From: Eledone cirrhosa
Taxonomy: Eukaryota
Length of the DNA: 64,000 bases
Direction of reading: 5' to 3'
Assembly: GCA_964016885.1 (NCBI GenBank)
Contig: OZ024740.1
Span: 336,040,001-336,104,000, forward strand
Below, one piece after another: positions 2,293 to 3,998 of the stretch. Below the pieces are notes generated by a model. The model ran no database searches. It was not told the origin of the DNA and was given only the letters and a program-made list of their open reading frames with translations. Both the position numbers and the translations under genes were made by a program. The first letter of the stretch is position 1. The number at the start of each line of letters is the position of its first letter.

Positions 2293-2481
2293 GGAAAATG
2301 CTCAAGACCCCGACGGCAGAGCTCGAGCCGTTTTGACGGCTAGTCGAGAAATAGCCGTCGAAACGGCGGAGCTCTGCCGTCGGGGTCTTGAACATTTTCA
2401 TATTACCCACTATACTACCCTAAGTATTGAGTACTCTGGTGCGTTATGGTCCCCCTGGTTCCTTACCACACTTCCTTCGTT
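2293..2481 (+). mobile_element. Family A foldback element (HHR 3' half duplicated in inverted orientation) in (TA)n
   Basis: GACCCCGACGGCAGAGCTC..GCCGTTTTGACGGCTA-loop-TAGCCGTCGAAACGGC..GAGCTCTGCCGTCGGGGTC, then a conserved tail ending CCTTCGTTA; (TA)n on both sides. Confidence 0.8.
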
Positions 2482-2515
2482 ATATATATATATATATATA
2501 TATATACATATATAT

Positions 2516-2702
2516 AAAAAGATTCAGGACCACGACGGCTGAGCTCTGGCCGTTTCGACGGCTAGATCCGAACTCTGTCGAAACGGCCGGAGCTCAGCCG
2601 TAGAGATCTTGAATCATTTCATATTACCCACTCTACTACCCCAAGTATCAAGTACTCTGGAGGGTTATGGTCCTCCTGGTATTTTACCACACCCTTTCTG
2701 GT
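2516..2702 (+). mobile_element. Family A foldback element, diverged copy
   Basis: Same palindrome and tail as 2293-2481 with a different central loop. Confidence 0.75.
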
Positions 2703-2719
2703 ATATATATATCGATATA

Positions 2720-2843
2720 TGTGTGTGTGTGTGTGTGTGTGTGTGTGTGTGTGTGTGTGTGTGTGTGTGTGTGTGTGTGTGTGTGTGTGTGTGTGTGTGT
2801 GTGTGTGTGTGTGTGTGTGTGTGTGTGTCTGTGTGTGTGTGTG
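2720..2843. repeat. (TG)n microsatellite
   Basis: Direct observation. Confidence 0.95.
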
Positions 2844-3027
2844 TATATATATATGTATATGACAGTTGAAAATTGCAAACTTGGCTGTCACCACAGAATA
2901 TGAACCTGAAGATTGCGAAAGCATGAAAGTACTTGTTCAATTAACACTTAACATTTAATATTCTACCATAGTATTTCATTTAAAGGGTCGGACATGCTTT
3001 CCAGCATAGTTAAGTCCCTTTATCATC

Positions 3028-3140
3028 TGAGTTCAAATCCCGCCGAGGTTAACTTTGCCTTTCATCCATACTGGGTCGATAAAATAAAGTACCAGTAAAG
3101 CACTGGAATAATTGCTAGCCTTGTGCCAAGAGTAGAAACA
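3028..3140 (+). mobile_element. SINE fragment (same family as 838-918)
   Basis: GAGTTCAAATCCCGCCGAGGTTAACTTTGCCTTTCATCC..GGGTCGATAAAATAAAGTACCAG: B-box-like GTTCAAATCC followed by the central domain. Confidence 0.65.
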
Positions 3141-3294
3141 ATTATAATTTTAAAGGATTGTAAATAAAACAGTCAATCAGACAAAGTTGGAATTCCCTTT
3201 ATTAATATAATCCTCTATACACAATCATACACACCCGTGTATATTTACATATATATATATATATATATATATATATATATATATATATATATAT

Positions 3295-3460
3295 AGGAAA
3301 ATGTATGACCCCGACGGCAGAGCTCAAGCCGATTCGAAACGGCTTGAGCTCTGCCGTCGGGGTCATTTTTTTTCCTATTTCCCTCTCTACTACCCTAAGT
3401 ATTGAGTACTGAGTATTGAGTATATGGTCCATCTGGTTCCTTACCACAATTCCTTTGTTA
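3295..3460 (+). mobile_element. Family A foldback element in (TA)n
   Basis: Palindrome centred on TTCGAA (3333-3338) with the family A tail. Confidence 0.75.
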
Positions 3461-3832
3461 TATTTATATATATATATATATATATATATATATATATATA
3501 TATATGTATATGTATATATATATGTATATATATATGTATATATATATATGTATATATATATATATATATATATATATATATATATATATATATATATATA
3601 TATATATATATATATATATATATATATATTTATGTATATATACATATATATAGTGCGTGAAACTAATAAACCTTTGTTGGTACTGCCTCTCTATTTTGTT
3701 CCCGTTCAATTTTTTACTATATATATATATATATATATATATATATATGTATATGTATATATGTATATATATATATATATATATATATATATGTATATAT
3801 ATATATGTATATATATATATATATATATATTT

Positions 3833-3998
3833 AATATTCTGCAGGACTAGAACTCTTTCATTCGTATGATGATTTCGTACGAATGAAACAGTTATAGTCT
3901 TGTAGAAGCCATTTCTATATTAAATATTGATGTTTACATTCTACTAATGTATTGAGTAGCTTATTTGCTGTAGTTACCCCCGATTTAACTTGGTATCT
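3833..3998 (+). mobile_element. Family C foldback element (HHR-like 3' half GAAAC-AGTTATA-GTC) in (TA)n
   Basis: TTTC-ATTCGTA-loop-TACGAAT-GAAA palindrome; homologous to 17332-17462. Confidence 0.6.

Follow-up and report, generated by a model that had tools for sequence, protein, structure and literature searches.

Penelope-like retrotransposons that carry an endonuclease are described, in the accessible text of PMC8557442, PMC3846280 and PMC11167929, as tandem units with one open reading frame (ORF) of the reverse transcriptase (RT)/GIY-YIG type. They have a head-to-head inverted, 5'-truncated partner, an extension at one end and two alternative 3' ends, and they occupy AT-rich or (TA)n targets, with a palindrome at the inverted junction and a hammerhead motif in the pseudo-long terminal repeat (pseudo-LTR). 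Penelope-like integration is poorly understood, and there is only one in-vitro system. These features, with an ORF apparently of that type, recur in a repeat family, here called family A, which was examined in a window of 64,000 nt (the whole stretch of DNA analysed; Eledone cirrhosa, assembly GCA_964016885.1, contig OZ024740.1, positions 336,040,001 to 336,104,000) and in genome-wide samples. The family departs from the elements described in those texts in that most of its products are ORF-less pairs of 60- and 140-nt stubs, and in that its extension measures 80 nt rather than 30–40 nt. The palindromic copies, or foldbacks, are probably head-to-head pairs of extremely 5'-shortened Penelope-like copies (‘solo inverted pseudo-LTRs’), each pair likely made in one insertion in which a (TA)n site was cut and its two strands both primed reverse transcription; they resemble a side product of a known class of transposon more than a new kind of element.

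The predicted hammerhead motif of family A resembles the minimal Penelope hammerheads, as presented in PMC4209133, in its type I layout, U3-A8 covariant, G10.1-C11.1 pair, long helix II with a bulged base on its 5' side, and palindromic loop 3 (GAGCTC); the same source notes paired hammerhead motifs on opposite strands, 100–700 bp apart. In contrast to those motifs, helix III has 5–6 bp here and 1–2 there, loop 2 spans 37 nt and holds a hairpin of its own, and the first 100 matches include 23 C3/A8 cores and no canonical core. Animal non-LTR retrozymes, in the accessible parts of PMC7229834 and bioRxiv 10.64898/2026.07.22.740005, are likewise short, non-coding, hammerhead-bearing derivatives of Penelope pseudo-LTRs. 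Retrozymes consist of direct tandem repeats and have complete ribozymes and circular RNAs, whereas the present units are in inverted arrangement, are without the catalytic half and would be incapable of self-cleavage. The two units of the window that do stand in tandem, at 2292 and 2521, each lack the 5' half of the core. In twin priming by LINE-1 (long interspersed element 1), both target strands prime reverse transcription and the complementary DNAs (cDNAs) are joined inside the insertion, but two different RNA segments are copied and the result is an inversion, not a palindrome; both arms here copy the same 3' segment from two defined sites.

The initial annotation of this DNA described short copies composed of a hammerhead 3' half and its inverted copy, with a centre at stem II that differs between copies. 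Direct reading and blastn against the long copy of the window, by which the copies below were defined, upheld the description for those at 2292, 2521, 3295 and 60720, the one at 50923 being degraded.

2292..2342, minus strand: inverted arm of copy 1, the hammerhead 3' half in reverse complement
2343..2351, no strand: copy 1, centre GTCGAGAAA, the arm–arm junction
2352..2399, plus strand: copy 1, sense arm (stem II 3' strand, GAAAC, stem III, GTC, GGGGTC, 12-mer)
2400..2483, plus strand: copy 1, one-sided 84-nt extension (the Penelope ‘tail’), ending CGTTAT, then (TA)n
2521..2704, plus strand: copy 2, foldback and extension, built as copy 1 and more diverged
3295..3461, plus strand: copy 3, foldback and extension, centre at GATTCGAAAC (3331–3340)
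50923..51043, plus strand: diverged foldback from this or a sister subfamily, left arm cut short inside stem III
53256..53314, minus strand: lone 5'-truncated copy with its 5' end in loop 2, the short 3' end and no partner arm
60720..60915, plus strand: copy 7, the best-preserved foldback (inverted arm 60720–60769, centre 60770–60782, sense arm 60783–60832, extension 60833–60915)

The copies at 2292–2483, 2521–2704, 3295–3461 and 60720–60915 share a common build, namely (TA)n, inverted arm, a short centre that differs in each, sense arm, an extension of ~80 nt reading ATTACCCACTCT…CCTTCGTTAT, and again (TA)n. Their inverted arm is the reverse complement of …TAGCCGTC-GAAAC-GGCTTGAGCTCAGCC-GTC-GGGGTC and the 12-mer. 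In copy 1 it runs from the short 3' end (AGGAAAATG...) to GGCTA, lacks the extension and abuts (TA)n, and the sense arm has a stem III with the GAGCTC loop; 2293–2400 folds at −89.8 kcal/mol (z = −15.2), and none of 200 shuffles folds as well. Copy 2 carries GTTTCGAC at 2552–2559 and GTCGAAAC at 2577–2584, and both arms of copy 3 lack stem II, since its centre lies at GATTCGAAAC. Within 50923–51043 blastn detected the sense arm alone, and 53256–53314 is a single minus-strand arm without a palindrome. A repeat search of 2200–4000 returned (TA)n self-matches only.

Arms were mapped on the long copy of the window, which served as coordinate reference and has the following features.

25548..26429, plus strand: 5'-truncated Penelope-like element (3' untranslated region, hammerhead, extension)
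26241..26335, plus strand: complete hammerhead-type motif, by sequence and minimum-energy fold
26241–45 with 26330–34, plus strand: helix I, ACCCC / GGGGU
26246–52, plus strand: core UUGAGAA, unpaired in the fold
26253–61 with 26299–306, plus strand: helix II, GAUCGGCUA / UAGCCGUC
26262–98, plus strand: loop 2, 37 nt, with a distal hairpin at 26273–93
26285..26296, plus strand: hot spot of arm ends genome-wide, mode at G26290
26307–09, plus strand: GAA, unpaired in the fold
26310–28, plus strand: helix III, ACGGCU…AGCCGU
26329, plus strand: C17, with the cut predicted after it from sequence
26350..26429, plus strand: extension between the two alternative 3' ends, both of which finish in TAT

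The genome was searched by patterns, a 131-nt DNA query being unusable since very common words are skipped. The 32-nt pattern for the 3' half gave 17,710 + 17,663 matches against 0 for a reversed control, the 5'-half pattern gave 2,865 + 2,903, and the exact extension anchor gave 14,198 + 14,217 against 0 for its control, an abundance far above chance expectation; family A is also present in contigs of two other organisms. Arms were parsed in samples taken with exact-match anchors from the first ~23 Mb of one contig together with the window. The first 100 places listed for the extension anchor provided 93 distinct copies, which were mapped onto the window copy, and a second sample, taken with a 3'-half anchor and therefore blind to the extension, provided 31 arms from 30 loci.

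An adjacent inverted arm accompanies 73 of the 93 extension-anchored copies. Its outer end falls exactly at 26349 in 54/73 and within 26347–26352 in 60/73, without the 80-nt extension, and only 3/73 foldbacks have both arms extended. At its inner end the inverted arm stops within 26283–26303, a 21-nt interval of loop 2 and stem II, in 61/73, so that breakpoints are far from uniform along the element and the clustering at stem II proposed in the initial annotation was borne out. The sense arm starts at 26283–26296 in 47/73 foldbacks, and among 46 centres parsed finely the commonest position is G26290, which belongs to the 3' strand of helix II's distal hairpin. Minor clusters of arm ends occur in the palindromic helix III, where 12/73 sense arms start (26309–26325), and at the predicted hammerhead cut site.

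The two 3' ends are CCTAT at 26345–49 (short) and GTTAT at 26425–29 (long). The 3'-half-anchored sample contained 14 loop-2 foldbacks and 4 other head-to-head units, and every one of these (18/18) has exactly one extension. Single copies in this sample use the short and the long end equally (5 vs 5), and the short site is therefore a genuine 3' end. Among the first 100 places of the 3'-half pattern there are 18 head-to-head pairs, with start-to-start distances of 41–74 nt. A run of at least four TA units follows the extension in 92/93 copies and lies outside the inverted arm in 59/66. Extrapolation from 28,415 anchors at a rate of 73/93 puts the mini-foldbacks in the genome on the order of 20,000. 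Seven units whose other flank is not (TA)n (L043, L058, L070, L105, L107, L109 and L124) still have the 3' (TA)n, and the 3' tract may be partly made during insertion, beyond being the target. In L005, L006 and L029 the arm with the extension breaks off within it, near …CACCAGAG, where an arm of loop-2 length is attached; this region is a further stop or junction hot spot.

The long form of family A runs ~740 nt further upstream, in the window and at other loci, and is preceded by an open frame of 710–784 codons that forms arrays in the genome with a spacing of 3,528–3,544 bp. At one locus (L137), three modules of hammerhead plus extension lie 3,531 bp apart, the module being 98.5% identical to that of the window. 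In the array the extension continues directly into the 5' leader, with an ATG ~92 nt on, so what serves as a ‘3' end’ in dispersed copies lies inside the RNA of the unit. A 717-aa ORF contains the motifs YRDDG and FLD...YRK...HP and, at its C terminus, a VIYQC...AYIGLT stretch, which we take to be signatures of the RT and GIY-YIG families; the domains GIY-YIG, RVT_1, HTH_animal and DUF8422 are present in the Atlas clusters closest to it and in its top homologue. An adjacent inverted partner was found at 8/12 ORF-anchored loci. At the L010+L031 locus, a 1,863-bp inverted and 5'-truncated copy (the last ~1.9 kb of the element) abuts a direct copy of ~3.5 kb to which it is 98.6% identical; the inverted copy ends at the short site, and the extension sits on the direct copy. 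Judged by its sequence, family A is thus the pseudo-LTR, at the 3' end, of an abundant Penelope-like element with a putative endonuclease, because of its tandem units, inverted partners, one-sided extension, (TA)n targets and hammerhead, features that match the descriptions in PMC8557442 and PMC3846280. The 3,531-bp tandem arrays include frames of 784 codons, with 22,245 first-look candidates, and the family looks recently active and very abundant. A LINE-type reverse-transcriptase fragment (a …GVLQGDTLAPYLF…-like frame) lies beside a Penelope copy, downstream of (TA)n, in L009 and is probably an unrelated neighbour.

Two further families, B (540 matches with up to 2 mismatches) and C (191 anchor matches), have the same layout of inverted arm, centre at the hairpin just upstream of GAAAC, sense arm and one-sided extension, and each has a foldback in the window.

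3830..4000, plus strand: family C foldback (inverted arm 3830–3866, centre 3867–3875, GAAAC 3885–89, extension to 4000)
24438..24513, plus strand: family B foldback, old and diverged (inverted arm 24438–24467, centre 24468–24484, sense arm 24485–24513)

The centre of the family B foldback, 24468–24484, is the stem II loop in reverse orientation; some other foldbacks of this family keep the natural loop of ~9 nt in either orientation, and its complete copies carry a UUGAAAA core. Of 30 family C loci inspected by eye, roughly two-thirds have the head-to-head form. The motifs …CTACTA…GTATTGAGTA… and …CTGGTTC.TTACCAC… occur in the extensions of B and C as in family A, and by these motifs the two are its sister lineages. 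The initial annotation had rightly seen the same centre architecture at 3856–3888 and 24463–24489, but its description of these loci as unrelated did not survive.

Priming from both strands would account for this architecture as follows. The element nuclease would cut both target strands, and each 3'-OH would prime on a UAU site of one RNA, or of RNAs from one source, to which a (TA)n primer could anneal since both 3' ends finish in TAT. One strand would use the proximal UAU site and the other the distal one, the two cDNAs, ~60 and ~140 nt long, would both end at one place in loop 2, and their 3' ends would be joined with little or no homology by a template jump or end joining, so that a different centre would result each time. 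The foldback products would be dead on arrival because they lack the catalytic 5' half. A lizard Penelope protein cleaves and extends both target strands in vitro, and its RT starts at two internal sites that bound the ‘tail’ (PMC11167929).

The initial annotation proposed instead that first-strand cDNA snaps back at the stem II hairpin and copies itself into the second arm, an idea related to one already published for the inverted junctions of rotifer Penelope elements, where the palindromes were read as self-priming (accessible text of PMC3846280). Agreement between the arms of one copy and a centre placed in a natural hairpin in three families would suit this idea, as would the natural stem II loop that families B and C often keep at the centre and the inverted 5' stubs of only 8–10 nt in L077 and L121, such as an off-centre opening of the hairpin would give. 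A single cDNA that copies itself should, however, have equal outer ends and a contiguous turn, and neither is seen. In 54–60 of 73 foldbacks the 80-nt extension sets one outer end apart from the other, against 3/73 with the extension on both arms, and exactly one extension is present in all 18 units that were not selected for it. Most family A arms stop at ~26290, before the apex of the hairpin, and meet without self-complementary ends (e.g. GGAC|GTCC): the joints are blunt or contain fillers or A/T runs of 18 nt. Which arm reaches further into the centre varies (in 21 of 46 centres the one with the extension, in 15 its partner, in 10 both equally), and the arms of kilobase-long units meet at element positions more than 1 kb apart. 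We therefore consider self-priming unlikely as the source of the foldbacks. The A or T runs of ~18 nt occur at the centre of otherwise young foldbacks (L013/L049, L095) and may reflect untemplated or slipped synthesis at the junction.

An origin at the DNA level, in which single copies became palindromic by replication template switching or break repair at the hairpin, would draw on the foldback inversions that hairpins promote in other systems, as far as the accessible sources go. Here, however, the inverted arm ends precisely at the 3' end that independent single copies use, abuts (TA)n in 59/66 units and is found in the same arrangement in kilobase-long units; accidental repair would not restore the 3' terminus of a retrotransposon in the majority of copies, and this origin is for that reason barely credible.

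Whether the foldbacks arose once or repeatedly can be read from the 12 nt beyond helix I, which occur in 18 variants among 47 copies and are the same on both arms in 32/47. Over 48 nt, the arms of one copy differ on average at 2.79 positions and those of different copies at 5.55, a within-copy match reached by 0 of 2000 shuffles; because the arms of one unit match, both are suggested to have been copied from the same RNA or from RNAs of one locus. The main foldback variants recur in complete elements with the same linked differences in loops 2 and 3. Centres are distinct in 42 of 46 copies, and the youngest 22 copies (arms differing by at most 1 base) have 21 distinct centres, also within each subfamily. 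Since arms share subfamily variants and centres differ, the foldbacks are judged to have arisen many times and not to have spread from a single master; neither uniform breakpoints nor a single amplified clade, either of which would have told against the initial annotation, was seen.

Amplification of one or a few foldback masters, non-autonomous in the manner of a short interspersed element (SINE) or a miniature inverted-repeat transposable element (MITE), with centres later decayed by palindrome deletions, would agree with the very high copy number. It would also agree with the recurrence of some centre strings in two copies (e.g. L074/L087 and L105/L107) and with the resemblance of many centres to nested central deletions of a longer palindrome; palindrome centres are unstable. 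Yet mutations of a master would mark one arm only, whereas the 18 types of variant stand on both arms in 32/47 copies, complete elements bearing the diagnostic variants exist for the main foldback subfamilies, and the youngest copies hardly share a centre. The palindrome, moreover, lies at one end of the unit, and the 80-nt extension lies outside one arm, so that there are no terminal inverted repeats. Among the features of MITEs and foldback DNA transposons looked for, terminal inverted repeats were absent and a target-site duplication was unreadable inside (TA)n. On this evidence, amplification from masters is quite improbable.

Several points weigh against insertion by both-strand priming or against the identification of the element. 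The samples come from the first ~23 Mb of one contig and the window. In the in-vitro lizard work, start-site use did not differ between the two strands (PMC11167929), and the one-extension-per-unit rule is therefore not explained by it. An older proposal, that a nuclease trims a symmetric intermediate (PMC8557442), may still apply to the short units. Six of the 20 copies that have no full-length inverted arm also start within 26284–26295, so the joining of two cDNAs is not needed for the loop-2 end. One foldback (L078) has arms from two different subfamilies, which fits two RNAs rather than one. A local Pfam scan of the ORF returned 0 families at E ≤ 0.01 and at E ≤ 10.

The products show an obligate rule of one extension per unit, arms of the same source and a junction made anew each time, which argues against self-priming and favours priming from both strands. 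In this genome, tens of thousands of minimal insertion products have their two 3' ends, two 5' ends and junction readable within 200 bp.

Why both arms of a pair made by both-strand priming should end at stem II is a separate question. Independent arrest of each cDNA at this position was rejected, as the partner extends past loop 2 in 8/8 long direct copies with an adjacent inverted partner; stopping therefore belongs to the unit and not to each arm. A common end may be the 5' terminus of the template RNA, located in loop 2. In family A, a TATA-like TATTTAAATA at 26260–69 lies ~30 nt upstream of the hot spot (TTAGTCC/TCAGTCC, 26287–93), an arrangement whose motifs and spacing we take to follow the TATA and initiator consensus, and TATTTAAATA could thus be read as promoter-like. 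Lone copies also end in loop 2. A TATA plus initiator pair is mentioned for the rotifer pseudo-LTR in the accessible text of PMC3846280. As a general cause, a TATA box in loop 2 is doubtful, for loop 2 of family B has only ~9 nt and the same centre. Alternatively, a folded or protein-bound helix II may stop both polymerases on the RNA; three families with very different loop lengths all have their centre at the hairpin of helix II, which speaks for this candidate. We tentatively entertain, as a possibility short of an even chance, that in the three families the pseudo-LTR owes its 5' boundary to stem II or to a promoter within the loop, one RNA being copied twice from two UAU sites onto both target strands. 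If so, the ~20,000 mini-foldbacks would be a natural record of the unsolved Penelope integration reaction, and the architecture of the ribozyme would be tied to the peculiar inverted structure of the element.

The complete motif itself was only partly as the initial annotation had it: the foldbacks indeed lack the 5' half, but the reference core reads UUGAGAA and not the CUGANGA named there. The minimum-energy fold of 26238–26338 is a three-way junction with helix I open and with UUGAGAA and GAA unpaired, at a z-score of a mere −1.65. GAA, the A15.1-U16.1 pair and the GUC triplet before helix I, all within 26307–26335, are invariant or nearly so in 23 complete copies. In these copies 90% of 621 helix cells pair, as against 17–48% with the partners slid, and no pair (0) is altered on both sides, the copies being too alike for compensatory changes. 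Rfam gave no hammerhead at the gathering score over the whole window and no match at E ≤ 10 for 26200–26420.

Core types were tallied by hand in the first 100 of the 5,768 matches to the 5'-half pattern, which comprise 75 U3/A8, 23 C3/A8, 2 U3/G8 and 0 C3+G8 cores, so that the canonical C3-U-G-A-N-G8-A was absent from these 100; position 7 varies among G, T, A and C. Positions 3 and 8 could thus form a U3-A8 pair in 75/100, a covariant described for Penelope hammerheads in the accessible part of PMC4209133. The CTACTCGTTCCT subfamily has a C3/A8 core that is unable to pair and yet many foldbacks (e.g. L009, L033, L099, L127, L133), and ribozyme activity may be unnecessary for foldback formation.

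Copy starts that abut (TA)n within 10 nt of the cut site were tallied by hand over ~55 distinct loci within the first 100 rows listed; 31 of them fall at G26330 and the runner-up has 6. This cluster is an indirect hint of self-cleavage after C17. As a secondary cluster of 5' ends it is sharp, located at the base after the predicted cut (e.g. L037, L081, L083, L046), and suggests that cleaved RNAs may be reverse-transcribed.

Much of this picture is already in print, in the accessible portions of the papers cited: inverted pseudo-LTRs, junction palindromes, the one-sided tail, (TA)n targets, pseudo-LTR hammerheads, the U3-A8 core and the self-priming hypothesis. A mapping that places the Penelope junction in loop 2/stem II, a predominance of ORF-less head-to-head stubs among the products, a quantitative rule of one extension per unit and evidence against self-priming were not found in the literature searched, supplements and subscription journals aside.

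For annotation, these hairpins look like microRNA precursors or MITEs, by which pipelines for repeats and small RNAs would be misled; the foldbacks of the window themselves match plant MIR models weakly. Dozens of sub-threshold Rfam microRNA matches in the window (mir-297, mir-3149, mir-466 and others) are hairpins of (TA)n/(TG)n microsatellites and not genes, with such look-alikes at 7349–7654, 21664–21886, 60050–60143 and elsewhere. Between the foldbacks, at window positions 2980–3110, lies a tRNA-like SINE fragment (…GTTCAAATCCCGCCGAGG…GGGTCGATAAAATAAAGTACCAG).

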